Of a stretch of 32,000 nt of DNA, positions 11,429 through 31,883 are shown one piece after another. The stretch's first letter is position 1; every line of letters starts with the position of its first letter. The notes beneath the pieces were generated by a model. That model was not told the DNA's origin and made no database searches. It saw only the letters and a list, made by a program, of their open reading frames with translations. The position numbers were made by a program, and so were the translations under genes. Location of the stretch: contig NZ_CP011035.1 in assembly GCF_001465295.1 (NCBI RefSeq), positions 540,001 through 572,000 on the forward strand, read 5' to 3'. Source of the DNA: Pseudoalteromonas translucida KMM 520. GTDB taxonomy: Bacteria > Pseudomonadota > Gammaproteobacteria > Enterobacterales > Alteromonadaceae.

Positions 11429-11638
11429 TTAGATAGCTACGATGTTTTCAGCTTGTGGACCTTTTTGACCTTGTGTAACAGTAAACTGTACACGTTGGCC
11501 TTCAGCTAGAGTTTTGAAACCGTCGCCAGAAATTGCGCTAAAATGTGCGAAAACGTCTGCGCCAGATTCTTGCTCGATAAAACCAAAACCTTTTGCTTCG
11601 TTAAACCATTTTACTGAACCAGTAGTTGTATTAGACAT
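11429..11638 (-). CDS. Cold-shock protein, CspA family (copy 1)
   Basis: 69 aa. The RNP1/RNP2 motifs KGFGFI and VFAHFS are present, and SD AGGA lies upstream. Confidence 0.95.
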
Positions 11639-11793
11639 AATTATATCCTAAAAAATTAATAAAAGTGTGCCTGAAAGTAGGCGATTGAGCTGGAAAAAAC
11701 CTATATTTAACTTGAGGATAACGCGAAGGATTATTACTAATATCAACGTGGTACTTACAAATAAACAGTATTTCTTTCAAACTTATATAAATA

Positions 11794-11815
11794 GATGGGT
11801 TATAAATAACCCATC
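11794..11815 (-). terminator. Hairpin terminator candidate downstream of csp copy 2
   Basis: 9-bp stem gatgggtta pairs with taacccatc, followed on the minus strand by a U/A-rich tract. Confidence 0.45.
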
Positions 11816-11827
11816 AACTTAAACATC

Positions 11828-12037
11828 TTAGATACAAACGATGTTTTCAGCTTGTGGACCTTTTTGACCTTGTGTAACAGTAAACTGTACACGTTGGCCT
11901 TCAGCTAAAGTTTTGAAACCGTCGCCAGAGATTGCACTGAAATGTGCGAAAACGTCTGCGCCAGATTCTTGCTCGATAAAACCAAAACCTTTAGCTTCGT
12001 TAAAAAACTTTACTGTACCAGTAGTTGTATTAGACAT
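11828..12037 (-). CDS. Cold-shock protein, CspA family (copy 2)
   Basis: 69 aa. It differs from copy 1 at only a few residues (S8T, W11F, A68C). Confidence 0.95.
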
Positions 12038-12193
12038 AATTGTATCCTAAGAAATTAATAAAAAATGTGCCTGAAAGTAGGCGATTAAGCTGGAAAAAAT
12101 AAATATTTAACTTGAGGATAACACAAAGGATTATTACTAATATCAACGTGGTACGTACAAATAAACAGAACTTCTTTCAAACTAATATTCATT

Positions 12194-12215
12194 AACGGGT
12201 TATTACTAACCCATT
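12194..12215 (-). terminator. Hairpin terminator candidate downstream of csp copy 3
   Basis: Stem aacgggtta pairs with taacccatt (one G-U pair on the minus-strand RNA). The U-tract is weak. Confidence 0.35.
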
Positions 12216-12227
12216 AAATTAAAAAAT

Positions 12228-12434
12228 TTAGATGCAAACAATATTTTCTGCTTGCGGGCCTTTTTGACCTTGTGTAACAGTAAACTGTACACGTTGGCCT
12301 TCAGCTAATGTTTTGAAGCCATCGCTAGTAATTGCGCTAAAATGAGCAAAAACATCAGGACCAGACTCTTGTTCAATAAAACCAAAACCTTTTGCTTCAT
12401 TAAACCATTTAACTGAACCAGTTGTTGTAGACAT
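12228..12434 (-). CDS. Cold-shock protein, CspA family (copy 3)
   Basis: 68 aa with the same RNP motifs. The third-position divergence is higher than between copies 1 and 2. Confidence 0.95.
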
Positions 12435-12708
12435 AGTAGTATCCTAAAAAAATTAAAGTGCGCCCTATATAAGGCATATAAAGAGTAAGAAAACATATAT
12501 TTAACTGAGGATAGCGCGAAGGATTATTACTAATAACAACGTGGTACTTACAAATAAACAGGGCTTTCTATCAACCCGATGTGACGTACTTTAACAGCAA
12601 CCTCAGCCGGATATCAAGTTTTATTTAGATTTATTTTTTCCACTAGCGAAGCGTACTGGCTTTTGTGGATTATAATTTGTTTAATTATTTTTGATAAAGA
12701 ACGTTATA

Positions 12709-12743
12709 TTAAGTAGTAATTTAAAAGGTGAATTACTACTTAA
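12709..12743. repeat. Perfect 13-bp inverted repeat with 9-nt loop
   Basis: ttaagtagtaatt (12709-12721) pairs with aattactacttaa (12731-12743). It lies in a ~490-bp region with no called gene. Confidence 0.9.
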
Positions 12744-12987
12744 ACGCAGTTGTTATTATATAGAGCAGGGTAATGGACTGTACGAAGTTAAATTACCAAC
12801 ACTAGAGCGGTAAACAATAAAGGCATTAATTAACAATAAGTTACGTTGTCTGGCGTTTGATCTGGGTTACAGGCACTTTTTAAATATAAAACGTATAAAT
12901 TGGCAAAACTAATTTTGACTTTATACCACTCACCCACTAAGTTATTTGCTTATATCAAGTGTTTAACAGTATTGTTATAGCTGTATT

Positions 12988-15552
12988 TTAGACTAATAAA
13001 AAGGGAGCCGTTTGGCTGGTTTTTGACTTTGCGACCTGTGCAGGGGAGCCTTGAGCGACTATTTGTCCGCCATGATCACCTGCGCTGGGGCCCATGTCGA
13101 TAACCCAATCACTATTACTGGCAACCTGCATATCATGTTCGACCATAATAACGGTGTTACCTGCATCTACAAGCTTATTTAATTGCACCATCAGCATTGC
13201 TATATCAGCTGGATGCAGGCCAGTAGTAGGCTCATCAAGTACATAAAGAGTATCACCGCGTTGTGTGCGCTGTAATTCGGTTGCAAGTTTAATACGCTGG
13301 GCTTCGCCGCCAGATAACTCGGTTGCTGGCTGGCCGAGGCGTAAATATCCTAGGCCTACTTGTAACAAAGTGTCCAAAGCTCGTGATATCTGTGGTTCAT
13401 CTATAAAAAATTGACGTGCAGATTCAACCGTTAAATCGAGTACTTGAGCAATGTTTTTTTCGCGATAACACACTTCAAGTGTTTGCTCGTTATAACGCTG
13501 GCCTTGGCATACTTGACACGGTGAATAAACACTTGGCAAAAATAACAGCTCAACACTAACAAACCCCACACCCTCACAATTAGCACAGCGGCCTTTTTTC
13601 ACGTTGAACGAAAAGCGGCCCATATCGTAGCGTCGTGCTTTAGACTTGTTAGTGGATGCAAATAATTTGCGGACGTGATCAAATAAGCCAGTATAGGTGG
13701 CGAGGTTTGATCTGGGTGTACGCCCAATTGCCTTTTGATCTACATTTACTAGACGTTTTACGTGCTGCATGCCATCTGTAATTTGCCCGCCAGTGGGAAT
13801 TTCTAGTTCTTGCTCGAGTAACTCGGCTTCGTCAGTTGGGCTCTCTAAAGTAGCTTTTTGTCCTAACGCATCATAAACCAGCTCCACTAGAGCTTGACTT
13901 ATGAGGCTTGATTTACCCGATCCAGAAACTCCGGTAACGGTTGTCATCACGCCCAGTGGAAATTCAACATCTAATTTTTGTAAGTTATTACGCTCAATTG
14001 CTGCGAGCTTTAGCCAGGCTTGAGGTTGTCTGCAAGTGTGTTTGGTTATCGCGTCTGCAGTAAACAAAAATCGAGCGGTATGAGATTTAGCAACGCCTTG
14101 TAAACCACTAATAGGGCCGCTGTAAATCACTTCACCGCCATGCGTACCAGCATCTGGGCCAACATCAACAATCCAATCGGCATGTTTAATAACGCTAACA
14201 TCGTGTTCTACAACAAATACAGAGTTACCAGCTGCAATGAGTTGATCAAGCGCCCCAAGCAATGCTTGGGTATCTGCTGGATGTAGTCCTGCTGAGGGTT
14301 CATCTAAAACATAAACCACACCAAATAGTTGTGAACGAATTTGGGTTGCTAGTCGTAAGCGTTGTAGTTCGCCTGCAGATAAAGTGGGTGTGGTACGTTG
14401 CAACGACAGATACCCTAAGCCAAGTGTTGTTAGTGCCTCTACCCGGGCCAAAATGTCGCTGGCAATTCGCTGAGCTACAATTGCTTTCTCTCTATTAGGC
14501 GAATTTTTGGCTGGCTTTATCTTAGCAATATCACGTAGTCGCAGTGCTAGCTCTGTTAGCGTTAATTGGGATAACTCACCAATATCAAGGCCTGTAAACT
14601 TGACCGACAAGGATTGCTGTTTTAATTTTTTACCTTTGCAATCAGGGCATTCAGAAATTTGCATAAACTGTGATACACGTTTTTTAGTTCGCGGGCTTTG
14701 CGTGGTAGCAAAAGAGTGCAAAATAAAACGTTTAGCACTTGAGTATGTACCCATGTAACTCGGCTTCTCATTTTTTTCAATGGCGTTGCGAGTTTGCTCT
14801 TTGCTGTATTGCGGGTAAACAGGTACAACGGGAGTTTCGTCGGTAAATAGAATCCAATCGCGGGTTTTTTTAGGGAGTAATTTCCATGGTGTATCAATGT
14901 CGTAACCAAGAGAGACAAGTATACGGCTGAGGTTTTGTCCTTGCCACGCAGGAGGCCATGCAGCTATGGCCCGTTCGCGAATTGTTTTTGTATCATCAGG
15001 TACAAGTAACTTTTCTGTTACTGCAAACACTCGGCCAATACCATGACATAAGGTGCAGGCACCTTGTGGAGTGTTAGGGGAAAATGCGTCGGCGTAGAGT
15101 ATACTTTGACCGCTAGGGTAGTCGCCTGCACGAGAGTAGAGCATTCGCAGGGTATTAGAAATAGTAGTTACACTTCCCACAGATGAGCGAACCGATGGGG
15201 TGCCTCGTTGTTGTTGCAGTGCTACTGCAGGAGGTAGGCCGTTTATATCATCTACATCGGGCTCATCTACTTGGTCAATTAATCTTCGCGCGTAAGGCGA
15301 TACAGAATCGAGATAGCGGCGTTGTGACTCGGCAAACAAGGTGCCAAAAGCGAGAGATGATTTTCCAGATCCCGATATACCAGTAAAAACGATGAGTGCG
15401 TTGCGGGGTAAGTCTACATCAACATTTTTTAAATTGTGAACCCGCGCACCCCGAACCTGAATACAGTGCTCAGGTGCACTGGAAATGCTGTGCGTTTGCT
15501 GTTGAAGTGTGTGGTTTACAGGTTTTGTTGCGTTTTTGCTGATACTGCTCAT
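12988..15552 (-). CDS. UvrA paralog (class II, UvrA2-like ABC ATPase lacking the UvrB-binding domain)
   Basis: 854 aa with two ABC modules (GISGSGKSS, GVSGSGKSS; signatures LSAGELQR, LSGGEAQR) and Zn-module cysteines (CTLCHGIG, CPDCKG, CANCEG, CQVCQG). Only ~25 aa separate the LYSRAG segment from the FSPNTPQGAC motif, where E. coli UvrA has the ~130-aa UvrB-binding insertion. Confidence 0.85.
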   Translation of the reverse strand: MSSISKNATKPVNHTLQQQTHSISSAPEHCIQVRGARVHNLKNVDVDLPRNALIVFTGISGSGKSSLAFGTLFAESQRRYLDSVSPYARRLIDQVDEPDVDDINGLPPAVALQQQRGTPSVRSSVGSVTTISNTLRMLYSRAGDYPSGQSILYADAFSPNTPQGACTLCHGIGRVFAVTEKLLVPDDTKTIRERAIAAWPPAWQGQNLSRILVSLGYDIDTPWKLLPKKTRDWILFTDETPVVPVYPQYSKEQTRNAIEKNEKPSYMGTYSSAKRFILHSFATTQSPRTKKRVSQFMQISECPDCKGKKLKQQSLSVKFTGLDIGELSQLTLTELALRLRDIAKIKPAKNSPNREKAIVAQRIASDILARVEALTTLGLGYLSLQRTTPTLSAGELQRLRLATQIRSQLFGVVYVLDEPSAGLHPADTQALLGALDQLIAAGNSVFVVEHDVSVIKHADWIVDVGPDAGTHGGEVIYSGPISGLQGVAKSHTARFLFTADAITKHTCRQPQAWLKLAAIERNNLQKLDVEFPLGVMTTVTGVSGSGKSSLISQALVELVYDALGQKATLESPTDEAELLEQELEIPTGGQITDGMQHVKRLVNVDQKAIGRTPRSNLATYTGLFDHVRKLFASTNKSKARRYDMGRFSFNVKKGRCANCEGVGFVSVELLFLPSVYSPCQVCQGQRYNEQTLEVCYREKNIAQVLDLTVESARQFFIDEPQISRALDTLLQVGLGYLRLGQPATELSGGEAQRIKLATELQRTQRGDTLYVLDEPTTGLHPADIAMLMVQLNKLVDAGNTVIMVEHDMQVASNSDWVIDMGPSAGDHGGQIVAQGSPAQVAKSKTSQTAPFLLV

Positions 15553-15685
15553 AAAATTGCTGCTCCGGATTATATCGTGCTTTTCAATTTTTGATCTAGT
15601 TTGGCGTGGTTAGTCGAGCTTGCTTACCATAACGTACTTACATTTATACTTCAAACCTGCATTTTGGTTTAGCTAGTTTGTATTA

Positions 15686-16339
15686 TTACTTTATCGATAA
15701 GTCGTATTTTAAAATAAGGGTATCTATATAGCGGGTTCTAAGTGTGTGTTGTTTTTCGTGATCGGCACCATGGCTCAAAGCCCGGTTGAGTAACTTTATA
15801 GCGGGGTGCAGTTTTGCTCGCTCATCTTGATCTAACCCCGCTTTACTGCGTAATTCGGTTATGTCATCAACCACCAGTCGGCCTATATCAACAGCCACTA
15901 TTTCGTCTATTAAGCCATTTTGAGTAAGCACACCATATTTGCTGCATAAAAATTGCTGCCACACTTGTTGTACATGTTCTTCTATTTCACAACTAAATAG
16001 TTCTTCGTTAAATTCAAACCCTTGCTGAGCAAGTTTGGTTAAGCTAGCGGTATATTGCTGGGCAAAGTAATTAAATGCCTGGCTGGATGAATCAATTTTT
16101 TGCTTTATCAGCCCTTGCCCCCAGTTTACACAACCTCGAGGGTAATAATCGTCGTACTCTTCGCATTCGTACAAACCCGAATATGAACTGCAACTTAGTT
16201 GGTTTTTAATACAATAACTAGGCTTAGGAAATACACTTTGCTGTTGCCAATGCTCAAGCTTATCTGCATCAATATTGAGTGCCTGGCATAGCTCGTCGGT
16301 ATGATAAAAATGGGTTGTTAAGTACTGAGATAAACGCAT
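15686..16339 (-). CDS. Hypothetical protein (217 aa), SOS-box-controlled; possible N-terminal MerR-like HTH
   Basis: The ORF has a promoter and LexA box ~30 nt upstream. The N-terminus HTDELCQALNIDADKLEHWQQQSVFP resembles MerR-type HTH openings, but this match is weak. I recognise no family. Confidence 0.55.
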   Translation of the reverse strand: MRLSQYLTTHFYHTDELCQALNIDADKLEHWQQQSVFPKPSYCIKNQLSCSSYSGLYECEEYDDYYPRGCVNWGQGLIKQKIDSSSQAFNYFAQQYTASLTKLAQQGFEFNEELFSCEIEEHVQQVWQQFLCSKYGVLTQNGLIDEIVAVDIGRLVVDDITELRSKAGLDQDERAKLHPAIKLLNRALSHGADHEKQHTLRTRYIDTLILKYDLSIK

Positions 16340-16370
16340 AAAAGCTCGCCTAATATTAAAAATACAAACA

Positions 16371-16386
16371 CTGTTTATATATACAG
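16371..16386 (-). promoter_or_regulatory. LexA (SOS) box CTGT-N8-ACAG overlapping the -10 of the 217-aa gene promoter
   Basis: The site reads aCACTGTTTATATATACAGTTa, against the consensus TACTGTATATATATACAGTA. On the minus strand, -35 TTGATA (plus coordinates 16402-16407) is followed by a 17/18-nt spacer and a TATATA -10 inside the box. Confidence 0.8.
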
Positions 16387-16511
16387 TTATTCATTTTGTA
16401 TTATCAAACTTAATATTACAAGCCATTTTATTACAAAATATGCGTTTACAGCTGCAAAAGCACACATAAATATGGTACAAATAGCGCAAGTTTTATAAAG
16501 AATGATTTTTT

Positions 16512-17429
16512 ATGCGCAGCCTAGAACAAATTAAACAAGCAAGTCTTATTACAGCAATTAAAACACCTTATTTATCGAGTGGCGAAATTGACCTTGCAAC
16601 ATACGATCGCCTTGTTGAGTTACAAATAGCAGCTGGGGTTGACGGTATCGTTGTAGGCGGCACTACCGGCGAAGGCCAGTTAATGAACTGGGAAGAGCAC
16701 TTAATGCTCATAGCGCATAGCGTAAATAAGTTTAGCAGTAAGCTAGTAATTGTAGGTAATACGGGCAGTAATAATACCCGAGAAGCGATTAAAGCCACTA
16801 AATATGGTTTTGCCAGTGGTATGGATGCTGCTTTGCAAATTAACCCTTATTATGGGCGTACCTCTATTGCAGGTGTAAAAGAGCATTTAAAGCGTGTTCT
16901 TGATATTGGCCCCGCATTTATTTACAACGTAGCGGGGCGTACAGGACAAGACTTAACGCCTGATATTATTGAGCCATTAGCAAAGCACGAACATTTTATT
17001 GGTGTTAAAGAGTGCGGTGGTAACGAACGTATAGCTCATTATGAGAAGCAAGGCATAGCGTGTTGGTCGGGTAATGATGATGAAAGCCACGATGCTCGTC
17101 ATACTCATGGCGCTCATGGGGTTATTTCGGTCAGCTCTAATCTTATGCCAGAATTATTTCGCCAGTTAATGGATGCGCCTAATGCTGCGCTAAATACGTC
17201 ATTACAACCATTAATAAATTGGTTGTTTTGCGAGCCAAATCCAATTGCGATTAATACTGCACTCATGATGACTGAGGCAGTTAAACCGGTATTTAGATTA
17301 CCTTATTTACCCCTTAACGACGCGCAGCAACAGCAAGGTGAAAAGTTGATTAATCAGCTAAGCGCAAGTGATGTTGTTGGTGGCCATGCTCGCTGCATAA
17401 ATGAACAAGAATTCTTTTTAATATCATAG
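16512..17429 (+). CDS. dapA: 4-hydroxy-tetrahydrodipicolinate synthase (DapA/NAL-family class I aldolase)
   Basis: 305 aa with the motifs GGTTGEG, NPYYGRTS, YNVAGRTG, Schiff-base Lys in GVKECGG, and GVISVSSN. The WSGNDDE...GVISV block resembles plant-type DHDPS (from memory). Confidence 0.75.
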   Translation: MRSLEQIKQASLITAIKTPYLSSGEIDLATYDRLVELQIAAGVDGIVVGGTTGEGQLMNWEEHLMLIAHSVNKFSSKLVIVGNTGSNNTREAIKATKYGFASGMDAALQINPYYGRTSIAGVKEHLKRVLDIGPAFIYNVAGRTGQDLTPDIIEPLAKHEHFIGVKECGGNERIAHYEKQGIACWSGNDDESHDARHTHGAHGVISVSSNLMPELFRQLMDAPNAALNTSLQPLINWLFCEPNPIAINTALMMTEAVKPVFRLPYLPLNDAQQQQGEKLINQLSASDVVGGHARCINEQEFFLIS

Positions 17430-17546: not shown

Positions 17547-18260
17547 GTGAAATTTGTTGTTGAACAACTCGCTACATGGATCCAGCCAGAACAGCGACAA
17601 ATAGAAAGCGATCATTGGTATGATAACTCGCCTATAACGCTTGATTGGGTTGCACCTATGCAACGCCGGCGTATGACTCGTTTTAGCAAAATGGTATTAC
17701 ACAGTGCCCAGCAAGTAAGTAGCGCAGATCAGCATACTAATTTATCTGCGGTGTTTTCATCGCGCCACGGGGACTTGCATAAAACAGCCAATTTATTAGT
17801 TGATATAGTTAACCAGCAACCATTATCGCCCACAGGTTTTGGCCTGAGTGTACACAATGCCGCTGCCGGACTCTTTAGTATTATAAAAAGTAATACCTGT
17901 GCAATGAATGCTATTGCAGCAGGGGCTGAGAGTTTTATGTGTGCAATTGTAGAAGCCTACATTCGTCTTGTTGATAGCAATGAGCAGTACATGTTAGTAG
18001 TCCATAGCGATGAAACCCTCCCCGATATATATAACCAATTTGCTGACGAGCTACAAATTACTCATTCCATTGCTATGATAGTGCGCCTTGCTCAAGCAAA
18101 TGAGCCGTGCTTTAGTTTAAATAAAGTACTTAACTCTGCTACAAAAAATAGTAACTTACCAATGAGCCTGCAAGGTGCTAAAGCCCTGCACGATAAAAAA
18201 AGTGCGATATTAACCCACACTACACTGGCTCATCATTGGCAACTTACCTACCATGATTAA
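17547..18260 (+). CDS. Beta-ketoacyl synthase N-terminal-like / chain-length-factor-like protein (ApeC equivalent)
   Basis: 237 aa with a GTG start. It is a half-size KS-like protein at the head of an APE-type operon, and its end overlaps the next gene by 8 nt. Confidence 0.6.
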   Translation: MKFVVEQLATWIQPEQRQIESDHWYDNSPITLDWVAPMQRRRMTRFSKMVLHSAQQVSSADQHTNLSAVFSSRHGDLHKTANLLVDIVNQQPLSPTGFGLSVHNAAAGLFSIIKSNTCAMNAIAAGAESFMCAIVEAYIRLVDSNEQYMLVVHSDETLPDIYNQFADELQITHSIAMIVRLAQANEPCFSLNKVLNSATKNSNLPMSLQGAKALHDKKSAILTHTTLAHHWQLTYHD

Positions 18261-19038
18261 ACACATTATAAGAATAACAGGGCTTTGTTGGCGTGTGCTT
18301 GCAACCGGTGTTTGTTTTAGCGTGTTTGGCATAGGTGGTTTAGTACTAACATTAGTGGTTTTTCCGCTGCAAAACGTATTAGAAGCAGATATAAACACCC
18401 GTAAAAACAGAGCAAGAGCGACAGTACATTACTGTTTTAAATTTTTTGTTGGGTTAATGCATCACACAGGCGTTATTCGTTTTAATATTAAAGACAAAGC
18501 CCAGCTTGCCAATTTAAGCGGAAAATTAGTACTTGCTAATCACCCCTCTTTAATTGATGTGGTTGTGCTTATATCTGTGATTAAAAATGCAGATTGCGTA
18601 GTGAAAGCCCATTTATTTAAAAACCCATTTATGCGTGGTGTAATTAAAAGTACTGGCTATATAAGTAACGAAGATCCAGAGGGGTTATTACGTGAATGTG
18701 AGCGCAGTATTAGTAAAGGAAATAACTTAATCGTTTTTCCTGAAGGCACACGTTCACAGCCCCATACGGCACTTAAGTTTAAACGAGGAGCGGCCAATAT
18801 AGCCCTTAGGTGCAATGCGCCAATCGCTACAGTATTAATAAAAATGCAGCCAAATACCTTAACCAAGGGTACACCTTGGTATAAAGTAGCGCCTTATCAA
18901 GCGCACTTTAGCTTGCAGCTGGCCAGCAAGCAGTTTAACAGTAACCTGGCTTATGTTAGTGACACACCCGCTATACAATCTCGGCATTTAACTAATAGCT
19001 TACAACATTATTTTACAGAAGAACTGAGCAATTTATGA
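18253..19038 (+). CDS. Lysophospholipid/1-acylglycerol-3-phosphate acyltransferase family protein (ApeD equivalent)
   Basis: 261 aa with an N-terminal TM segment. It has the LPLAT motif NHPSLID (HX4D) and FPEGTRS. Confidence 0.8.
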   Translation: MIKHIIRITGLCWRVLATGVCFSVFGIGGLVLTLVVFPLQNVLEADINTRKNRARATVHYCFKFFVGLMHHTGVIRFNIKDKAQLANLSGKLVLANHPSLIDVVVLISVIKNADCVVKAHLFKNPFMRGVIKSTGYISNEDPEGLLRECERSISKGNNLIVFPEGTRSQPHTALKFKRGAANIALRCNAPIATVLIKMQPNTLTKGTPWYKVAPYQAHFSLQLASKQFNSNLAYVSDTPAIQSRHLTNSLQHYFTEELSNL

Positions 19039-19292
19039 CTGAATTAAAAGTACAAATTAAACAATTAATTATATCTAGCCTTGATCTAGAAGATATGACA
19101 ACTGCAGACATTGCTGATGATGAAGCATTATTTGTTGATGGTTTAGGGCTCGATAGCATAGATGCATTAGAACTTGGTTTGGCAATAAAAAAACAATTTG
19201 ATGTGAAAATAGATGCCAATTCAGAGCAAACAAAAGCGCATTTTGCCTCGGTGAATTCTTTAGCAAACTTTATAGAACAAGCACGTTCTTAA
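19035..19292 (+). CDS. Acyl carrier protein (ApeE equivalent)
   Basis: 85 aa acidic protein with the phosphopantetheine site LGLDSIDALEL. It has an ATGA overlap with the upstream gene. Confidence 0.85.
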   Translation: MTELKVQIKQLIISSLDLEDMTTADIADDEALFVDGLGLDSIDALELGLAIKKQFDVKIDANSEQTKAHFASVNSLANFIEQARS

Positions 19293-19317
19293 ATTATAAA
19301 AATATATAGGAATAACA

Positions 19318-19563
19318 ATGAAAACCGCTGCTGAAATTTATGATGTATTACACGGCATTTTAGAAAACGATTTTGAGATAGACCCAGCCGATATAAACCT
19401 AGAGGCTAACTTATATCAAGACCTTGATTTAGACAGCATTGACGCTGTTGACTTGGTAGTAAAACTAAGAGAAATCACCGGTAAAAAAATTGATCCTGAT
19501 GCATTTAAACAAGTACGTACTGTGCAAAATGTAGTTAGCGAAATAGAAAAACTCGTTAACTAA
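19318..19563 (+). CDS. Acyl carrier protein (ApeF equivalent)
   Basis: 81 aa with the motif LDLDSIDAVDL. SD AGGA lies upstream. Confidence 0.85.
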   Translation: MKTAAEIYDVLHGILENDFEIDPADINLEANLYQDLDLDSIDAVDLVVKLREITGKKIDPDAFKQVRTVQNVVSEIEKLVN

Positions 19564-19567
19564 GTAA

Positions 19568-20134
19568 ATGCTTAAAGCCTTGCTAACCACCCTTATTATG
19601 CTTTGTTTGGCCTGCTACCCAGTTATAGTGTATGTGGGCCTGACGCAGTTTAATAGCCAACTGGTGTCGATCGTATTATTATTTTTGCTTGCACTACGCT
19701 TGTGGTTAAGCAAAGCACTATTTGACAAAATGCCGTGGTTAAAGCCAGCGACATTTTTAGCTGTGATCGCAATCGTATTGTCAAAAGTGTTCGACAGTGA
19801 TGTGGGTTTACGTTTATACCCGGTGATTATTAACACTGTGATGTTGCTCGTGTTTAGCTACTCACTTTATAAAGGGCCATCAATAATAGAAACCTTTGCC
19901 CGCATCACTGAGCCTGAGCTCGATGAGCAAGGTGTGCAATACACTAAAAAAGTAACTCAGGTGTGGTGCGTTTTTTTTATAGTTAATGGTGGTATTGCCT
20001 TATATACCAGCCTGTTTGCTAGTTTGGCAGTGTGGGCTTTTTATAATGGTGTGATTGCCTATGTAGCTATGGGCGTGTTGTTTGCCTTAGAGTGGCTAGT
20101 CAGGCTAAAAGTAAAAAGGAAAGCGCGTGTTTAG
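19568..20134 (+). CDS. Integral membrane protein of APE clusters (ApeG-position)
   Basis: 188 aa with ~5 hydrophobic helices. The position matches the small membrane protein between the ACPs and the AMP-ligase in APE clusters. Confidence 0.6.
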   Translation: MLKALLTTLIMLCLACYPVIVYVGLTQFNSQLVSIVLLFLLALRLWLSKALFDKMPWLKPATFLAVIAIVLSKVFDSDVGLRLYPVIINTVMLLVFSYSLYKGPSIIETFARITEPELDEQGVQYTKKVTQVWCVFFIVNGGIALYTSLFASLAVWAFYNGVIAYVAMGVLFALEWLVRLKVKRKARV

Positions 20135-21506
20135 TACATTTCAAAGTAAAATATTTCAAAGTAATAATGTTAGTGTGTGCTTTAATCATGAAAATAAGGC
20201 AGTGACGCAACGCCAGTTTGTTAGCGATGTTAATCGGCTATTAGCTAAGTATTCACCGGCCACAGCACCCACATCTGTAGTGTTATATAGCACTAATACT
20301 TATAAGTTTGCGGTAAGCTTAATGGCACTCACCTTGCGCGGTTGCACGGTTATATTGCCACCCAATGGCCAACCCGAAACACTCAAAGCCTTACTACAGC
20401 AAACGCCTTGTTTTTTAGGTGACTCAGAACTTGTTGAGCCACTGGGTATTGACCTAATTAATATAGAAAACTTGCCCGATCAACCTGGCTTTTTTCCTTT
20501 AGCGCAACTTGTTTGGCCCAAAGAAGGGAACTTGGTGTTCTACACCTCGGGATCAACAGGTAAAGCTAAGCCAATTGTAAAGTCGTGGCAAACAATTAAC
20601 AAAGAGCTGAGCATTTTATCAAGCAGTTATGCGTTAAAATGTATGCCAATGTTTATTGCTAGCGTATCGCATCAGCATATTTACGGGCTGTTATTTAGGT
20701 TGTTGTGGCCGCTTAGTACCGGACATGTCGTTGATACCGATTTACTGCACTACCCAGAACATATAGCCGCCAAGCTCAAGGGCGCTAAACAAGTGGTGTT
20801 AATTTCTAGCCCCGCACAGCTAAAACGATTATGCGCAGACAACGTATTAATTGAACAAAAATCTCATTTACAATGGATATTTTCATCAGGTGGGCCACTG
20901 GCAAACGAAGATGCAGTATCGCTATTCAGCCAGTTAAATAAACCAATAACACAAGTGTTTGGCAGTACCGAAACCGGTGGTATAGGGTATCGACAAGTTA
21001 CCTCGCTTGAAAACGTGAGCTCGTGGCAGCCGTTTTCAGGTATAAAAATGAGTGTTGGCACAGACGATAGGCTCTTTTTAAATTCACCGCTAGTGAACCA
21101 CAAAGATTACTCGCTTGACGATAGAGGTTTGGTGCTTAAAAACGGTCAATTTAAACTGCTTGGTCGATTAGACCGCATCATAAAGTTAGAAGAAAAGCGC
21201 CTCAGTTTAGACGAACTAGAACACCACTTAGCAAGCAGTGAGTGGGTAAACGACGTTAAAGTAATTGTATTACCTGGGGCAAGGCAAGTAATAGGTGCGG
21301 TAGTTGTGCTTAGCCAGCAAGGGGTAAAACATTTACAAAGTGAAAGTAAATTAGCCACTAATAAGCTTTTAAAAGAGCATGCACTAACGCGTTTTGAGCG
21401 CATTTGTACGCCTAAAAAGTGGCGTTTTATAGAGCAGTTACCTTATAACAGCCAAGCTAAATTAAACTTAAAAGCATTGGAGCACCTTTTTGACAAAGTT
21501 GATTAA
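20127..21506 (+). CDS. AMP-dependent synthetase/ligase (aryl-starter adenylating enzyme, ApeH equivalent)
   Basis: 459 aa with the AMP-binding core motif YTSGSTGKAKP and GSTETGG. It overlaps both neighbours. Confidence 0.85.
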   Translation: MFSTFQSKIFQSNNVSVCFNHENKAVTQRQFVSDVNRLLAKYSPATAPTSVVLYSTNTYKFAVSLMALTLRGCTVILPPNGQPETLKALLQQTPCFLGDSELVEPLGIDLINIENLPDQPGFFPLAQLVWPKEGNLVFYTSGSTGKAKPIVKSWQTINKELSILSSSYALKCMPMFIASVSHQHIYGLLFRLLWPLSTGHVVDTDLLHYPEHIAAKLKGAKQVVLISSPAQLKRLCADNVLIEQKSHLQWIFSSGGPLANEDAVSLFSQLNKPITQVFGSTETGGIGYRQVTSLENVSSWQPFSGIKMSVGTDDRLFLNSPLVNHKDYSLDDRGLVLKNGQFKLLGRLDRIIKLEEKRLSLDELEHHLASSEWVNDVKVIVLPGARQVIGAVVVLSQQGVKHLQSESKLATNKLLKEHALTRFERICTPKKWRFIEQLPYNSQAKLNLKALEHLFDKVD

Positions 21507-21849
21507 AACGCAGCCGCAACTACTTAAATGTGAGCAAACCGAGCAAGGTTATCAATTAAGTTTATTTGTGCCCAAGGATTTAGATTACTTTAATGGCCAT
21601 TTTAAAGACGGCCCTATTTTAGCAGGCGTAGTGCAGCTAGATTGGGCGATTGCTGCAATTTGTAAGCAGTATAATATTCAATTCGCAGTAAAAAATGTCG
21701 AAGTGCTAAAGTTTCAGGTGGTGATTACTCCGGGCCTTACTATGGTATTAGCCATAGAGCAAAAAGCGCTTAATAAGTATGTGTTTTCTTATCGCTCGGC
21801 TAAGGGACAACACGCGTCTGGGCGGATTGTTTTTGAAAGTGTTGCTTAA
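21490..21849 (+). CDS. Hotdog-fold dehydratase (ApeI-like)
   Basis: 119 aa with a TTG start overlapping the ligase gene. It has a FNGHF...PILAGVVQLDW hotdog-like core, and the position matches apeI. Confidence 0.6.
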   Translation: MTKLIKTQPQLLKCEQTEQGYQLSLFVPKDLDYFNGHFKDGPILAGVVQLDWAIAAICKQYNIQFAVKNVEVLKFQVVITPGLTMVLAIEQKALNKYVFSYRSAKGQHASGRIVFESVA

Positions 21850-22599
21850 ATGAATAAGTTTTGTATAGTGATTCCAAACTACAATCATACCTCAGTGATA
21901 GCGGCGGTATTAACCAGCCTAACTGAATATAACTTACCAATTATTATGGTTGATGATGCAAGTAATGATGCAGCTAAAACAGTGTTTTCTGCACTTGCAC
22001 AGCAGCATCCGTTACTTACAATTGTTACCCATGCGCACAACCAAGGTAAAGGTGGGGCGGTTCAAAGCGGTTTGCATTATGCGTATCAGCAAGGGTATTC
22101 CCATGCTATTCAAGTTGATGCCGACGGCCAACATAATTTGGCCGATTTAGCGCAGCTTTTGCGCCTGTCAAACGCCAATCCACAGGCATTAGTAAGCTGT
22201 TGCCCAATATACGACGCTTCAGTGCCTAAGCATCGCTATTTAGCACGGTACTTAACCCATGTGTGGGTATGGATTGAAACTCTCAGCTTTGAAATTGTTG
22301 ACTCTATGTGTGGTTTTAGAGTGTATCCGCTGGGTGCCTGCGAAAAACTGTTAAAAGAAGTTAAGCTGGGCAAGCGGATGGATTTTGATCCTGAAATATT
22401 AGTGCGTTTATATTGGCGTAATGTGCCGTTTATATTTTTACCTAGCCAAGTGATCTATCCAGAAAATGGGCTTTCTCACTTTCAGCCATTGCACGACAAC
22501 GTGCGTATTTCTTGGCTGCATACGCGATTGTTTTTTGGTATGTTAGTGCGCTCGCCTTGGCTAATAGCACACAAAGTAAAGAGACGTTATGGCCGTTAA
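21850..22599 (+). CDS. Family 2 glycosyltransferase (ApeJ equivalent)
   Basis: 249 aa with a GT-A N-terminus (IVIPNYNH...VDDASND...QVDADGQH). Confidence 0.8.
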   Translation: MNKFCIVIPNYNHTSVIAAVLTSLTEYNLPIIMVDDASNDAAKTVFSALAQQHPLLTIVTHAHNQGKGGAVQSGLHYAYQQGYSHAIQVDADGQHNLADLAQLLRLSNANPQALVSCCPIYDASVPKHRYLARYLTHVWVWIETLSFEIVDSMCGFRVYPLGACEKLLKEVKLGKRMDFDPEILVRLYWRNVPFIFLPSQVIYPENGLSHFQPLHDNVRISWLHTRLFFGMLVRSPWLIAHKVKRRYGR

Positions 22600-23548
22600 A
22601 CATTGGTCTAAAATGCAAGAGCGCGGTAATTATTTAGGCATTCAAACCCTGCTATTTACACATAAAATACTGGGCCGCAAAGGGCTGTGGCTAATTTTGT
22701 TTCCTGTGGTGGTGTATCTTTTTATTACCGGTAGGGTTGCCCGTGCTGCTTCAAAACAGTTTTTACAGCAAGTTAATTTGTACACCGGCACTGGGCAAAG
22801 CGTGACACTTAAGCAGCAACTAAAGCACTTTTGCAGTTTTGCCGACAGCGCCTTTGATAAAATAGATGGTTGGCTTGGGCGTATTAGCTTAAGTGATATT
22901 GAATATACCAACGAGCATTTATTTAGCCAATTAAATGAGCAACGCCAAGGGGCTATTTTTATTGGCTCGCATTTGGGTAATTTAGAAGTCTGCCGAGCGC
23001 TTAGCCAACATCGCAGTGGCAAAGTTATTAACGTGCTGGTGTTTACTCACCATGCAGTAGAGTTTAATAAAATGCTGAAAAAAATTAACCCCAACGTAGT
23101 GGTTAATTTAATTCAAGTAACCGATTTAGGCCCAGGTTTAGCTATTTTATTGAAAGAAAAAATTGAGCAAGGCGAAATTATTGTTATTGTTGGCGATCGC
23201 ACCAGTACCACCACTGCCGCGCGTTCTGTGCAAGTGCCTTTTTTAGACAAGCCAGCCCCGTTTTCGCAAGGGCCTTTTATTTTAGCTGCATTACTTGATT
23301 GCCCAGTTTATTTTTTATTTTGTTTAAAAGATAAGAAAATCAATAAGTACCACGTAATATTTGAGCAATACAGCAACAGCTTAAAAATGCCCCGCACCCA
23401 ACGACAGGCAATTTTAAACCAAGTTATTACAGACTATGCGCAGCGTTTAGGTCACTATGCGGCGCAATATCCTTATCAATGGTTTAATTTTTACGATTTT
23501 TGGCAAAGTGATCAGCAAGTCGCCCGCGATCAAGCAAAGGAGAAATAG
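22589..23548 (+). CDS. LpxL/HtrB-like lipid A biosynthesis (lauroyl/myristoyl) acyltransferase family protein
   Basis: 319 aa with an N-terminal TM segment. It has the HLGNLE motif (the HxxxxE/D of the LpxL family) and the typical C-terminus ...YPYQWFNFYDFW. Confidence 0.7.
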   Translation: MAVKHWSKMQERGNYLGIQTLLFTHKILGRKGLWLILFPVVVYLFITGRVARAASKQFLQQVNLYTGTGQSVTLKQQLKHFCSFADSAFDKIDGWLGRISLSDIEYTNEHLFSQLNEQRQGAIFIGSHLGNLEVCRALSQHRSGKVINVLVFTHHAVEFNKMLKKINPNVVVNLIQVTDLGPGLAILLKEKIEQGEIIVIVGDRTSTTTAARSVQVPFLDKPAPFSQGPFILAALLDCPVYFLFCLKDKKINKYHVIFEQYSNSLKMPRTQRQAILNQVITDYAQRLGHYAAQYPYQWFNFYDFWQSDQQVARDQAKEK

Positions 23549-23550
23549 AA

Positions 23551-25095
23551 GTGCCAGTTCAAAACACACAGCTTTTTGGTCAGCAGCGATTATCAATCGA
23601 AAACATTGTTGATATTGCGCATAACTACACCCAAGTGCAAATTAGTGATTGCAGCAAATTTAGTAGCAAAATTAACAGCGCGCTGAGTTTTTTAGATACA
23701 TTATTAAAAGAAGACGGCGTTATTTACGGCGTAACTACCGGCTATGGCGACTCTGTAACCGTAGCAGTACCATTAAACTTAGTAGATGAACTACCCCTGC
23801 ATTTAACGCGATTTCATGGATGTGGATTAGGCGACGTATTTAATAAAGTACAAGGACGAGCAATTTTAGCCACGCGGCTTACGTCTTTATCGCAAGGCTA
23901 CTCGGGTATTAGCTGGGAAATGCTGAATTTACTGCGCGACTACTTAAATCACGATATTGTACCGGTTATTCCTCAAGAGGGATCGGTAGGTGCCAGTGGC
24001 GACTTAACGCCATTATCTTATGTTGCCGGTGCTATGGTAGGCGAGCGCGACGTATATTATAAAGACACCGTACGTAATAGCTTAGCAGTAATGCAAGAAG
24101 TGGGTTTAACGCCGCTCGTGCTGCGCCCAAAAGAAGGCCTTGCAGTAATGAATGGCACTGCAGTAATGACCGCATTAGCCTGCTTAGCATTCGACAGAGC
24201 CAATTATTTAGCCAAATTAGCCAGTCGTATTACCGCCATTGCCAGCTTAGCGCTCAAAGGTAATAGTCATCATTTTGATGAAATTTTATTCTCGGTAAAA
24301 CCCCACCCAGGGCAGCAGCAAATAGCACGTTGGATCAGAGATGATTTAAATCATCACGACCATCCACGTAATGCCGACCGACTGCAAGATCGCTACTCAA
24401 TTCGCTGTGCGCCGCATGTTATTGGTGTACTGCAAGACAGCTTGCCGTTTTTTAGGCAAATGATCGAAAACGAATTAAACTCAGCCAACGACAACCCTAT
24501 TATTGATGGCGAAGGGGAGCATGTACTGCACGGCGGGCATTTTTATGGCGGCCACATTGCCATGGCAATGGACAGCATGAAAACCGCAGTAGCTAATTTA
24601 GCCGATTTAGCCGACCGACAAATAGCCTCGTTGGTTGATACTAAATATAACAATGGCTTGGCGTCTAATTTATCCGACAGTGCCCCTGAGCGCCGTTATA
24701 TAAATCATGGTTTTAAAGCGGTACAAATTGGTGCCAGTGCTTATACGGCTGAGGCATTAAAATTAACTATGCCTGCCAGTGTGTTTTCGCGCTCTACCGA
24801 GTGTCACAACCAAGACAAAGTGAGTATGGGAACCATAGCCTCGCGCGATTGTTTACGTATTTTACAGCTTACCGAGCAAGTGATGGCCAGTACCTTATTA
24901 GCCGCTATTCAAGGGTTAAGGCTGCGAATTAAACAAGGCGAATTAGAATTTACGAGTTTAACTGACGATATGCAGCATATGTATAGCGATATAACCGGTT
25001 ACTTTGAAAACCTGACCGAAGACAGACCCATGGAAGCGGTGCTAAGACAAACTATTAGTTATATTCAAAGCAAACGCTGGACGCTTTATGAATAA
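23551..25095 (+). CDS. Aromatic amino acid ammonia-lyase (MIO-dependent HAL/PAL/TAL family)
   Basis: 514 aa with a GTG start 8 nt after AGGAG. The MIO-forming triad is in GSVGASGDLTPLSY, and the GYGD..., NDNP and YGGHF-type motifs are present. Confidence 0.9.
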   Translation: MPVQNTQLFGQQRLSIENIVDIAHNYTQVQISDCSKFSSKINSALSFLDTLLKEDGVIYGVTTGYGDSVTVAVPLNLVDELPLHLTRFHGCGLGDVFNKVQGRAILATRLTSLSQGYSGISWEMLNLLRDYLNHDIVPVIPQEGSVGASGDLTPLSYVAGAMVGERDVYYKDTVRNSLAVMQEVGLTPLVLRPKEGLAVMNGTAVMTALACLAFDRANYLAKLASRITAIASLALKGNSHHFDEILFSVKPHPGQQQIARWIRDDLNHHDHPRNADRLQDRYSIRCAPHVIGVLQDSLPFFRQMIENELNSANDNPIIDGEGEHVLHGGHFYGGHIAMAMDSMKTAVANLADLADRQIASLVDTKYNNGLASNLSDSAPERRYINHGFKAVQIGASAYTAEALKLTMPASVFSRSTECHNQDKVSMGTIASRDCLRILQLTEQVMASTLLAAIQGLRLRIKQGELEFTSLTDDMQHMYSDITGYFENLTEDRPMEAVLRQTISYIQSKRWTLYE

Positions 25096-25516
25096 TAAAG
25101 GCGCGTTACTTTCGCACAGTGTAGAAATAGAAATTCCTTTTCATGATTGCGATCCAATGAACGTAGTATGGCATGGTAATTACCCACGCTATTTAGAAGT
25201 TGCTCGTTGTGAGTTACTCAGAATATTTGACTACGACTACCTGCAAATGAAAGACTCTGGTTTTGCGTGGCCCATTGTTGATATGCAAATTAAATACGTA
25301 GCATCGGCTGTATTTACACAAAAAATTAAAGTAGCAGCGTATTTAAAAGAGTATGAAAACCGCTTACGTATTGATTATGTTATTACCGATGCAATCAGTA
25401 ATAAGCGCATTACCAAGGCGTCTACTACACAAGTGGCGGTAGAAATTAGCTCCAAAGAAATGCAATTTGTTTCACCCCCTATACTTTATGAAAAACTAGC
25501 CCCTTTTTTAAAGTAG
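25088..25516 (+). CDS. 4HBT/YbgC-type acyl-CoA/ACP thioesterase (ApeK equivalent)
   Basis: 142 aa hotdog protein with the N-terminal catalytic motif HDCDPMNVVWHGNY. Confidence 0.8.
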   Translation: MNNKGALLSHSVEIEIPFHDCDPMNVVWHGNYPRYLEVARCELLRIFDYDYLQMKDSGFAWPIVDMQIKYVASAVFTQKIKVAAYLKEYENRLRIDYVITDAISNKRITKASTTQVAVEISSKEMQFVSPPILYEKLAPFLK

Positions 25517-25537
25517 CTGGCAATTAAAGGAGAAGGA

Positions 25538-26077
25538 ATGACAATGTTTAAATTATTTATAACCAGCGTATTGCTGCTATTTTGTAGTGTATTGCAAGCA
25601 AACACGGCATCGCAGGTACATACCGCATTAAAGGCAGATACAGTAACGGGTGAGTTTAAACAATATAAACAACTTGCTGGTTTTGCATCGCCATTTGTCT
25701 CCTCTGGGGTATTTTCTCTAAATACCCAAAAGCTAGTATGGCAGGTCGAACAACCGGTAAAAAACACATTGATTGTAGAAAATGGCCAGGTACTGATTGA
25801 AAATGCTAAAGGGGAGTTTGTACCACAGCCAGGTAGTGAGCAGTTTGTAGGGCTTTTAACTGACTTACTCAGTGTAGATATGAGCGCCCTTGCAACACGT
25901 TTTAGTATAAAAACGCAAAACAATTGCCTGCAACTAACCCCAAAAGAAGCGCTGTTACGGCAATTATTTAGCCATTTCACTTTGTGTGAAAGTAACAAAA
26001 CGGTACACAGCATCATCCTTTATGAGCATTCAGGCAGTAAAACAACTATAGAGTTTAGTTATCCTGAGCAGCCTTAA
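25538..26077 (+). CDS. LolA-like outer-membrane lipoprotein carrier family protein (ApeL equivalent)
   Basis: 179 aa with a signal peptide (MTMFKLFITSVLLLFCSVLQA) and a strong SD (AAAGGAGAAGG). The position matches the LolA-like gene of APE clusters. Confidence 0.65.
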   Translation: MTMFKLFITSVLLLFCSVLQANTASQVHTALKADTVTGEFKQYKQLAGFASPFVSSGVFSLNTQKLVWQVEQPVKNTLIVENGQVLIENAKGEFVPQPGSEQFVGLLTDLLSVDMSALATRFSIKTQNNCLQLTPKEALLRQLFSHFTLCESNKTVHSIILYEHSGSKTTIEFSYPEQP

Positions 26078-26117
26078 CGGCTCAATCGTTTAAATAGTTA
26101 ATTAATGGAATAGTGGA

Positions 26118-28379: not shown

Positions 28380-28380
28380 A

Positions 28381-29661
28381 GTGAATAACCCTGAGCTGTT
28401 TGATGTTGTTGTAATTGGTGCGGGCCCCTCTGGCGCACTAGCAAGTAGCCTTTTAGTGCAAAAAGGCTGGCGAGTATTAGTACTTGAGCAGCAGGTTTTT
28501 CCGCGTTTTACTATAGGTGAGAGCTTGTTACCGCAATGTATGGAGTATTTGGCCGACGCTAATTTAGTCGCTCCATTGCATGAACACGCTGCAAGTTTAG
28601 GGTTTCAGTTTAAAAACGGCGCTGCGTTTCATCGAGCGGGGGAAAATACCGCGATTAATTTTACCGAAAAGTCATCTCCTGGCCCGGGTACCACTTATCA
28701 AGTGAAAAGAGGGCTGTTTGATAAATTACTCGCCGATAATGCACAGCTGCAAGGGGCTGTTATTCGTTATCAGCACAGTGTTAAAGACTACAAGGTTACT
28801 GATTCTTTAGAAAATAATACCAATAAAGATAGTGGCGATAAAAACGGTGGCGCAACCTTATTAGTACACGACGCGCAGCAACAGCCTTACCAAGTTCAAG
28901 CACGCTTTGTGTTAGATGCCAGCGGCTTTGGCCGAGTATTACCTAAACTACTAAACTTAGAGCTACCCTCTAACTTTCCGGTACGCAGTGCTTACTTTAG
29001 CCACTTTGTAGATAATATTAGCGATGAAAATTTTGATCGTAATAAAATACTCATTACCGTACACCCAGAGCACCGAGATATATGGTATTGGCTAATTCCC
29101 TTTAGTGATGGTACCGCAAGTATTGGTGTTGTAGCAGAGTCTGAGCGTTTTAATGACGATGAAGCAGAGGTAATGTTAAATCGCTTTTTAGAGCAAGATC
29201 CACATTTAAAAGCACTGCTAGCTAAACGCGAATTAATTGGGCCAGCTCGCAGCATAACAGGCTACTCCTCTAATGTGAGTAAGTTGTATGGGCAGCATTT
29301 TGCGTTATTAGGCAATGCGGGAGAGTTTTTAGATCCGGTGTTTTCATCAGGAGTAACCATTGCGCTTAAGTCAGCAAGTTTAATTGCACCTTTGGTCGAT
29401 CAGTATTTAAAAGGTGAGACGATTGACTTTGAGCAGCATTATGCAAAACCGCTACAAGCGGGAGTTAACTGTTTTAGAACTTTTGTTACAGGCTGGTACG
29501 ATACGCGCTTTCAAGACGTCATATTTCATACAGAGCAAAACAAGCAAGTGCGAGAAATGATCAGTGCAATTTTAGCCGGATACGCATGGGACACAAGTAA
29601 CCCATTTGTTGCAGAAAGTGAGCGCCGCTTAAATGTGCTAGCTCAGCTGTGCAGAACCTAA
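28381..29661 (+). CDS. FAD-dependent oxidoreductase with flavin-dependent halogenase signatures
   Basis: GTG at 28381 follows AAGGAAGGA and is preferred to the overlapping ATG at 28351. The motifs are GxGxxG (VIGAGPSGA), TIGESLLP, Lys in FQFKNGAAF, WxWxIP (WYWLIP) and FLDPVFSSG. Confidence 0.75.
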   Translation: MNNPELFDVVVIGAGPSGALASSLLVQKGWRVLVLEQQVFPRFTIGESLLPQCMEYLADANLVAPLHEHAASLGFQFKNGAAFHRAGENTAINFTEKSSPGPGTTYQVKRGLFDKLLADNAQLQGAVIRYQHSVKDYKVTDSLENNTNKDSGDKNGGATLLVHDAQQQPYQVQARFVLDASGFGRVLPKLLNLELPSNFPVRSAYFSHFVDNISDENFDRNKILITVHPEHRDIWYWLIPFSDGTASIGVVAESERFNDDEAEVMLNRFLEQDPHLKALLAKRELIGPARSITGYSSNVSKLYGQHFALLGNAGEFLDPVFSSGVTIALKSASLIAPLVDQYLKGETIDFEQHYAKPLQAGVNCFRTFVTGWYDTRFQDVIFHTEQNKQVREMISAILAGYAWDTSNPFVAESERRLNVLAQLCRT

Positions 29662-29706
29662 TATGCCGAAATTAATATGTTGAAACTAATATGCTTAAAC
29701 TAATAC
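29659..29706 (+). repeat. 14-bp imperfect tandem repeat (TAATATGYYGAAAY) x3.4 spanning the start of the DUF3261-like gene
   Basis: The units are 29659-29672, 29673-29686 and 29687-29700, plus a partial one. Each unit carries an ATG (29663, 29677, 29691), each in a different frame. Confidence 0.85.
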
Positions 29707-31420: not shown

Positions 31421-31883
31421 GCTGAGCAGTAATCATTACGCAATTGAGCAGTTGCTTGCCCACGACGCACCAATGATTTTAATTGACACTTTAACGCATT
31501 ATAGCGCCGAGAGTGCGCGTTGCCAGGTAACAATTACACCACAAAGTGCATTTTATAACGCCGATATTGCCGGTGTACCCAGTTACATTGGGGTTGAGTA
31601 CATGGCGCAGTCAATAGCCGCTTACGCAGGCGCATTAGCAAACGATGCAAATGAGTCACCTAAAATAGGTTTTTTAATTGGTACGCGTAAATATCAAACC
31701 CATCAAGCGTGTTTTAAAGTTAATAGTAACTTAACCATTAAAGTGCATAAACTGTATCAAGAAGAGTCTGGGTTGAGTGTGTTTGAATGCCAAATAAACC
31801 ACGGCGATACATTAGTATGTGAAGCAAAAATTAATGTTTTTCAGCCCGAAAATCCGCTGGAATTTATAAGAGAAAATCAATGA
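31407..31883 (+). CDS. Hotdog-fold (FabA/FabZ-like) dehydratase (ApeP equivalent)
   Basis: 158 aa that overlaps the KS gene by 14 nt. A hotdog core is present (GVEYMAQSIAAYAG...FLIGTRKY). Confidence 0.7.
   Translation: MPMNELSSNHYAIEQLLAHDAPMILIDTLTHYSAESARCQVTITPQSAFYNADIAGVPSYIGVEYMAQSIAAYAGALANDANESPKIGFLIGTRKYQTHQACFKVNSNLTIKVHKLYQEESGLSVFECQINHGDTLVCEAKINVFQPENPLEFIRENQ

Follow-up and report, generated by a model that had tools for sequence, protein, structure and literature searches.

The locus described here raises the question of which gene, or genes, a LexA box of Pseudoalteromonas translucida KMM 520 controls. It lies in a 32-kb stretch of chromosome II (contig NZ_CP011035.1; the whole stretch that was analysed is called the window below), in which a gene for a 217-residue protein (15686..16339, minus strand; product identical to PTRA_b0574) is preceded by a palindrome resembling the operators of LexA, the repressor of the SOS response to DNA damage, and is followed by uvrA2, a gene for a UvrA paralog. 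A preliminary description of this DNA had assigned the 217-residue protein to no family and had proposed that the two genes form one DNA-damage-inducible operon. The protein belongs to the Pfam family DUF6058 (PF19531), and comparison across the genus leads us to a different answer: with a probability of roughly 80%, the DUF6058 gene is predicted to be a genus-wide LexA-repressed (SOS) gene of Pseudoalteromonas, with uvrA2 lying outside the unit.

The predicted operator occupies 16369..16388 on the minus strand (AACTGTATATATAAACAGTG on the gene strand), with a CTGT-N8-ACAG core at 16371-16386 (CTGTTTATATATACAG, or CTGTATATATAAACAG when read on the gene strand from 16386 to 16371). It is located in the 172-nt divergent intergenic region between the DUF6058 gene (minus strand) and dapA (plus strand), and its core starts 47 nt and ends 31 nt upstream of the DUF6058 ATG at 16339, in agreement with the operator and the distance of about 30 nt given in the preliminary description. 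This is the sole CTGT-N8-ACAG site in the 32-kb window. The bare eight-base pattern is weak evidence when taken alone, because 28 of 100 shuffles also contained at least one match. The full 20-mer, however, shares 17 of its 20 positions with the Escherichia coli-type consensus TACTGTATATATATACAGTA, a score reached by none of the 100 shuffles. A published description of the LexA motif of beta- and gamma-Proteobacteria places it, as a rule, over the site of RNA polymerase (PMC3323433).

We scanned one genome per species and obtained 80 Pseudoalteromonas species with an ortholog, at 49-90% protein identity; the query was alignment A1 and not the broad family alignment A3, which is why all 80 loci are from Pseudoalteromonas. 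A site of the form CTGT-N8-[AC]CAG occurs 23-49 nt upstream of the ortholog start in 79 of these loci. Variants ending in -CCAG are genuine LexA operators in E. coli, where they are found at uvrB and in the second box of lexA. The 80th locus, from Pseudoalteromonas sp. ZZD1 (L019, 7950-8000), carries this site with TAG in place of CAG (CTGTACAAATAAATAG). It is the sole species locus with a broken box core, and it may represent a natural derepressed variant. The box is also found upstream of two more distant orthologs, with protein identities of about 40%, in P. phenolica and strain BBZB01. Overall, orthologs of 216-217 residues, with approximately 40-90% identity, are present in 82 other Pseudoalteromonas species, and in all 82 of the other species sampled a box whose core has no more than one mismatch lies 23-49 nt upstream of the gene.

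The intergenic sequence around the box has diverged between species, and the variation within the box lies mostly in the spacer, CTG and CAG being fixed. When the flanks are included (ACTGT...ACAGT), the 79 species sites match the consensus at 14-19 of 20 positions. A search of the 1.28 Mb that make up the 80 loci for CTG-N10-CAG with at least 14 of 20 consensus matches returned 79 sites, all of them within 80 nt upstream of a DUF6058 gene, and no comparable LexA-like site was found elsewhere in that sequence. Outside the Pseudoalteromonas clade, no LexA box precedes the DUF6058 copies that were examined. That LexA controls the 217-residue gene, which had been proposed from the window, is a prediction strongly supported by this comparison, and we regard it as very probable.

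The position of the box relative to the promoter is also conserved. A sigma-70-like promoter is predicted at 16393..16421 (minus strand), with a -35 element TTGTAA at 16421-16416, a 17-nt spacer, and a -10 element CAAAAT at 16398-16393; the box starts 6 nt past this -10, approximately at the predicted transcription start. Anchored on the box, the upstream regions of 83 orthologs share a TTGnnn -35 element, with a 17-nt spacer in 70 of them, a -10 element reading CAAAAT, CAGAAT or CACAAT in 61, and a gap of mostly 6-7 nt between the -10 and the box. This promoter was derived from conservation and not from the promoter scanner, which requires a T at position 6 of the -10 element and at least 9 of 12 matches, and which called neither candidate promoter of the DUF6058 gene. 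The other candidate, put forward in the preliminary description, is indeed present at 16378..16407 (minus strand), with TTGATA at 16407-16402, an 18-nt spacer, and TATATA at 16383-16378 as a -10 element inside the box. Since its TTGATA is retained in the window's own clade only, we consider this promoter less likely than the conserved one. LexA bound to the box would occlude either of them.

These elements suggest the following course of events. A LexA dimer would bind the 16-bp palindrome about 6 nt past the -10 element, covering the transcription start and blocking RNA polymerase. Upon DNA damage, the RecA-stimulated self-cleavage of LexA would free the promoter, and the DUF6058 protein would be made. 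This protein would combine an N-terminal MerR-type fold with a C-terminal helical domain bearing a polar cluster (Y135, T139, H194, E195, and R201). In a minority of strains, uvrA2 would have arrived, together with its own 5' region, on an insertion of about 3.0 kb placed right after the stop codon of the SOS gene.

Residues 88-213 of the 217-residue protein match the Pfam DUF6058 profile from position 1 to position 126 of 126 (E 1.6e-35; 122.5 bits against a cut-off of 25), which supplies the family that had been missing, and all 42 aligned relatives match the same model. An exhaustive search of 1.84 billion proteins with the family profile yielded only 157 clusters at 50% identity. Nearly all of these have 205-240 residues and are matched over their full length, indicating that the two-part layout characterises the family as a whole. 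The members that carry a name belong to Pseudoalteromonas, Colwelliaceae, Thalassotalea, Undibacterium, Pseudovibrio, and Tepidicaulis, and DUF6058 is a small, uncharacterised, mostly marine proteobacterial family. NCBI gives the product as 'DUF6058 family natural product biosynthesis protein', which we rejected as functional evidence, as it is a name only. We found no papers mentioning DUF6058 or PF19531 in the searchable literature, nor any account there of DUF6058 as an SOS gene. Scanning the protein against NCBIfam and PADLOC produced a single match (HNH_I-A, E 0.004), which we disregarded as not meaningful, and no Rfam families were found in the window.

The non-SOS DUF6058 genes occur in other contexts. 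Among 74 metagenomic loci, 15 have the gene at the end of a NIPSNAP-ABM-DUF6058 operon with a divergent ArsR-type regulator, and other non-SOS DUF6058 genes adjoin genes for glutathione S-transferase, DJ-1/PfpI or hydrolase proteins. In Colwelliaceae (L088, 7333-8651), as in many marine metagenome contigs, the gene likewise ends a NIPSNAP-ABM-DUF6058 operon by an ArsR-type regulator. Some Pseudoalteromonas, such as P. piscicida on chromosome I (L087, 6703-10802), possess a second, non-SOS DUF6058 copy with 28% identity, whose operon includes genes for an alpha/beta-hydrolase, a 129-residue unknown protein, a DJ-1/PfpI protein, and an esterase.

The predicted SOS clade also stands apart in its residues. 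Most family members keep C138, K150, and D185 in addition to the conserved residues of the C-terminal domain, which are W127, G133, Y135, G136, T139, H194, E195, and R201. In the SOS clade, C138 is replaced by Leu, K150 by Val, D185 by Asn, and the F-A-P motif at 191-193 by G-A-D, and the clade has gained invariant C50, C59, and C132. Because these family residues are replaced, we regard the Pseudoalteromonas clade as a diverged subfamily, and the changes suggest that function has changed within the clade.

The AlphaFold (AF2) model of the 217-residue protein is confident, with a predicted local distance difference test (pLDDT) score of 88.7 and a predicted template modelling (pTM) score of 0.84. 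The N-terminal domain (approximately residues 1-84; 16088..16339, minus strand) is modelled as a helix, a strand, two helices, a long beta-hairpin (42-67), and a helix, consistent with a predicted MerR-type winged-helix fold that is acidic and in which a long beta-hairpin forms the wing. The remainder (approximately residues 85-217) is all helical in the model and includes the C-terminal DUF6058 domain (15701..16078, minus strand; Pfam match residues 88-213). Foldseek returned no match at E <= 0.001 in either PDB or BFVD. The best-ranked matches in the two libraries are mostly MerR-type helix-turn-helix proteins aligned to the N-terminal 75 residues or so, with weak E values of 0.1-0.3: BmrR, CadR, CueR, RacA, and CbpM (3ucs_B) in PDB, and phage MerR-type proteins, with probabilities of 0.98-0.99, in BFVD. 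Pfam detects MerR_1 weakly in 5 of the 42 members (best E 8.5e-4, below threshold) and MerR in 2, and neither in the window protein. The weak MerR-like resemblance of the N-terminus noticed earlier from the letters alone is thus retained at the level of the fold.

For the C-terminal domain, Foldseek gave no significant structural neighbour in PDB or BFVD, and profile searches gave no sequence relative in PDB. Similarity to the C-terminal helices of bacterial Ku (9vnq_A, residues 170-212, E 0.013) and to ribosomal protein S15 was set aside as probably a chance resemblance between helical hairpins. Domains of the TipAS, AlbA or GyrI-like type were absent from the Pfam matches of the 42 members and from the Foldseek matches in PDB. 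The pattern of conserved polar residues in this domain is more suggestive of a pocket for binding or of an active site.

The best-surviving alternative concerns what the protein does. It might be a true MerR-family transcription factor, a second-tier SOS regulator that binds DNA with its N-terminal winged helix and senses a ligand through its DUF6058 domain. BmrR, CadR, CueR, and RacA at the head of the PDB matches, phage MerR-type helix-turn-helix proteins at the head of the BFVD matches, and the weak Pfam hits in a few members all agree with such a role, as does the order of the domains, since a helix-turn-helix followed by a C-terminal helical domain is the layout of MerR-family sensors. 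Nevertheless, the N-terminal domain is acidic, with a net charge of -4 in the window protein, a family median of -3, and an isoelectric point of 5.4. Position 68 is its only mostly basic (Lys or Arg) position, and the putative recognition helix (25-33) and the wing have no conserved basic residue, which makes classical MerR-type DNA binding doubtful. Moreover, the intergenic region contains neither a second conserved palindrome nor a promoter with a 19-20-bp spacer, and elsewhere in the family the gene ends NIPSNAP-ABM operons that have a separate ArsR-type regulator. Proteins with a MerR fold that bind proteins also exist, an example being CbpM, itself among the Foldseek matches. On balance, we consider a role as a MerR-family regulator unlikely.

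Given the acidic N-terminal domain and its lack of conserved basic residues, we find it more likely, although with low confidence, that the DUF6058 protein would act as a ligand- or protein-binding, or perhaps enzymatic, stress effector rather than as a classical DNA-binding regulator. A bolder and more speculative version would make the protein of the SOS clade a new DNA-damage-inducible effector, in which a MerR fold devoid of DNA binding is joined to an unseen helical fold and binds a genotoxic small molecule or a protein, with uvrA2 perhaps captured under SOS control by read-through in KMM 520-type strains. We hold this version to be rather improbable.

The downstream gene, uvrA2 (12988..15552, minus strand), encodes an 854-residue class II UvrA paralog that has two ABC ATPase modules and the UvrA insertion/DNA-binding domain but not the UvrB-binding domain; the preliminary description had called it a UvrB-independent UvrA paralog. 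In one review the term 'UvrA2' stands for the UvrA dimer, and that review was not used here. The uvrA2 product aligns end to end with UvrA2 of Deinococcus radiodurans (2VF7; residues 30-852 against 15-837, 1168 bits). In alignments to class I UvrAs, residue 154 of the product pairs with chain residue 282-291, so that some 130-150 residues, which comprise the UvrB-binding domain, are missing; TIGR00630 is likewise matched in two stretches that skip approximately profile positions 116-262. A further match of its C-terminal half, to the PADLOC model mad3 (E 9e-76), most likely reflects generic UvrA/ABC similarity.

The gene lies on a strain-specific segment of about 3.0 kb (12639..15681, minus strand), which replaces 182 nt of the TAC125-type strains. 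Homology between the window and TAC125 ends at 15682, 4 nt past the DUF6058 stop codon, and restarts at 12638. The segment consists of uvrA2, 129 nt upstream of it and about 350 nt downstream, and has a GC content of 43.4%, against 40.5% for the window. In strains whose DUF6058 protein differs by one residue (S116G), uvrA2 is absent from 7 of 8 distinct contexts, including chromosome II of TAC125, and in those seven the DUF6058 gene is directly followed by three tandem cold-shock genes.

Homologs of the uvrA2 product with 79-85% identity are found across several gammaproteobacterial orders, in Colwellia, Psychrobacter, Paraglaciecola, Brumicola, and P. aliena, and also in a Thiobacillus metagenome-assembled genome and a planctomycete (Aureliella). 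In the three loci that we examined (Colwellia, Psychrobacter, and P. aliena), the gene is solitary, in unrelated contexts and with no DUF6058 neighbour; in P. aliena it adjoins IS91 and integrase genes. None of these three homologs has a LexA box within 400 nt upstream. The identity pattern points to strong purifying selection and to horizontal transfer as a single-gene cassette. The proximal 5' region of uvrA2 (15553..15612, minus strand) is a candidate control region, as it is conserved across genera: an alignment (A4) of the upstream sequences from the window, Colwellia, Psychrobacter, and P. aliena has 21 invariant columns, mostly in the last 60 nt or so, and the final 45-60 nt before the ATG share AAAATTG[AT]AAAGCAC[GA]AT..AA..GGAG (homolog loci L097, L098, and L099, at about 4940-5000). 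Since this proximal region is shared with other genera, uvrA2 appears to travel with its own 5' region.

These observations bear directly on the proposal that the DUF6058 gene and uvrA2 form one damage-inducible operon, and together a genotoxin or DNA-damage defence module. The local arrangement would permit it. Both genes are on the same strand, separated by a 133-nt gap in which we found no terminator-like site and whose RNA folds no better than shuffled sequence (z = 0.16), confirming that a convincing terminator is lacking. The uvrA2 gene has no convincing sigma-70 promoter just ahead of it, and the -10-like hexamer TATAAT (15574-15569) abuts the Shine-Dalgarno sequence, which bears out the earlier remark that it is too close to be used. 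The insertion point, 4 nt past the stop codon of an SOS gene, also makes read-through physically plausible. Nevertheless, a uvrA2 gene occurs within 8 kb of the DUF6058 gene in none of the 80 species loci, nor in any of four further species loci, and most sister strains whose DUF6058 protein is almost the same, TAC125 included, lack it. The homologs of uvrA2 stand alone, away from any DUF6058 gene and LexA box, the 5' region of uvrA2 is conserved across genera, and the DUF6058 paralogs in the loci examined are never beside a UvrA gene. Conservation of the pairing had been set beforehand as a condition for the module; because the pairing is not conserved, the module is unsupported, and we judge a joint operon whose two products work together to be highly improbable. 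The 'LexA + unknown + UvrA2' arrangement looks like a false lead, produced by an insertion accident at the level of the strain.

That the palindrome is the operator of another regulator, for example of the DUF6058 protein regulating its own gene, is hardly credible: MerR-like proteins do bind palindromes and often autoregulate, but the site fits the beta- and gamma-proteobacterial LexA consensus, flanks included, across 79 species, it varies in the spacer while keeping CTG and CAG as expected for LexA, it lies downstream of the -10 element and not inside a long spacer as MerR operators do, and the DUF6058 protein has no conserved DNA-contact residues.

Several points weigh against LexA control of the DUF6058 gene alone, or against what we derive from it. 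The consensus TACTGTATATATATACAGTA is of the E. coli type and may not be the motif of Pseudoalteromonas LexA; our literature search gave nothing useful on a Pseudoalteromonas SOS box, and a study of the SOS response in multi-chromosome Vibrio omits Pseudoalteromonas. The box lies in a region shared with the divergent dapA, so that an effect on this gene may exist. As there is no terminator between the DUF6058 gene and uvrA2, passive read-through from the SOS promoter into uvrA2 may, at most, take place in KMM 520. The assignment of the MerR fold to the modelled N-terminal domain depends on weak scores (Foldseek E of 0.1-0.3, sub-threshold Pfam matches). Finally, the SOS clade has lost residues typical of the family, and conclusions taken from the contexts of the paralogs may not transfer to it.

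The divergent neighbour dapA (16512..17429, plus strand) encodes a 4-hydroxy-tetrahydrodipicolinate synthase of the DHDPS family (Pfam DHDPS, E 2.2e-77; TIGR00674, 213.7 bits against a cut-off of 206). It is the sole conserved neighbour of the DUF6058 gene, being found in all 80 species loci, three of which have it about 3.3 kb away. Control of dapA by the box was considered and rejected, and dapA is an unlikely LexA target, because some 125 nt separate the box from its ATG and the conserved -10 element of dapA is also far away. Beyond dapA, an aryl-polyene (APE)-type biosynthetic cluster extends over 17547-31883 (plus strand). It encodes a ketosynthase N-domain protein, an acyltransferase, two acyl carrier proteins, an AMP-ligase, an ApeI-like dehydratase, and a glycosyltransferase, and also an ammonia-lyase, a thioesterase, a LolA-like protein, an MMPL-type exporter, a flavin adenine dinucleotide (FAD) enzyme, and a ketosynthase. 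We do not link this cluster to the SOS gene, because it stands beside dapA in only about 25 of the 80 Pseudoalteromonas species. On the other side, three tandem genes for cold-shock-domain proteins of 68-69 residues (11429-12434, minus strand) lie in direct repeats of about 400 bp that share 82-86% DNA identity.

Compared with known systems, the uvrA2 product resembles D. radiodurans UvrA2 in its end-to-end alignment and in the absence of the UvrB-binding domain, and differs in its setting, as the gene in the window is a horizontally spread, solitary gene, inserted in some strains only and outside the LexA unit. It has the look of a single-gene cassette that is highly conserved, moves horizontally, and carries a conserved leader of its own. 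Other DUF6058 proteins share with that of the window the two-domain architecture of 205-240 residues and the motifs W-x-H-F-L-x-G-x-Y-G and H-E-x3-S-x-R, whereas their genes are without a LexA box and they retain C138, K150, D185, and F-A-P at 191-193.

With MerR regulators such as BmrR, TipAL, and CueR, the DUF6058 protein has in common an N-terminal beta-alpha-alpha-beta-beta winged helix followed by helices, as well as its best, if weak, structural matches. In contrast to them, its N-terminal domain is acidic, the wing hairpin (42-67) is much longer, Pfam MerR matches stay below threshold, and there is no GyrI-like, TipAS or metal-binding match for the C-terminal domain. In addition, the sole conserved palindrome here is the LexA box, downstream of a promoter with a 17-bp spacer. 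CbpM uses a MerR fold to bind a protein and not DNA. SbmC (GyrI), a small cytosolic protein induced by the SOS response, shields cells from DNA-damaging toxins and is neither an enzyme nor a regulator. Both serve as helpful functional analogies only, and the DUF6058 domain has no detectable sequence or fold relation to either. If the bolder reading of the protein as an effector were true, it would parallel the protection given by SbmC/GyrI, TipAS or AlbA and would supply Pseudoalteromonas, with its many bioactive metabolites, with an SOS-switched step of protection or detoxification.

Members of the LexA regulon such as sulA, umuDC, uvrB, and sbmC have the same 16-bp palindrome, CTGT-N8-ACAG or -CCAG, with an AT-rich spacer and a position over the core promoter or transcription start. 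Here, by comparison, the gene is one of the DUF6058 family, its regulation is predicted, and the box is confined to the Pseudoalteromonas clade. SOS regulons vary by lineage, and members peculiar to one lineage often bring new functions in damage tolerance to light. Genus-wide LexA control of one DUF6058 clade would give an experimental handle on an uncharacterised family and an entry point for de-orphaning it. The regulatory logic would thus be that of the textbook SOS response, and what appears to be new is the regulated gene, a member of an uncharacterised family under predicted LexA control across a genus.

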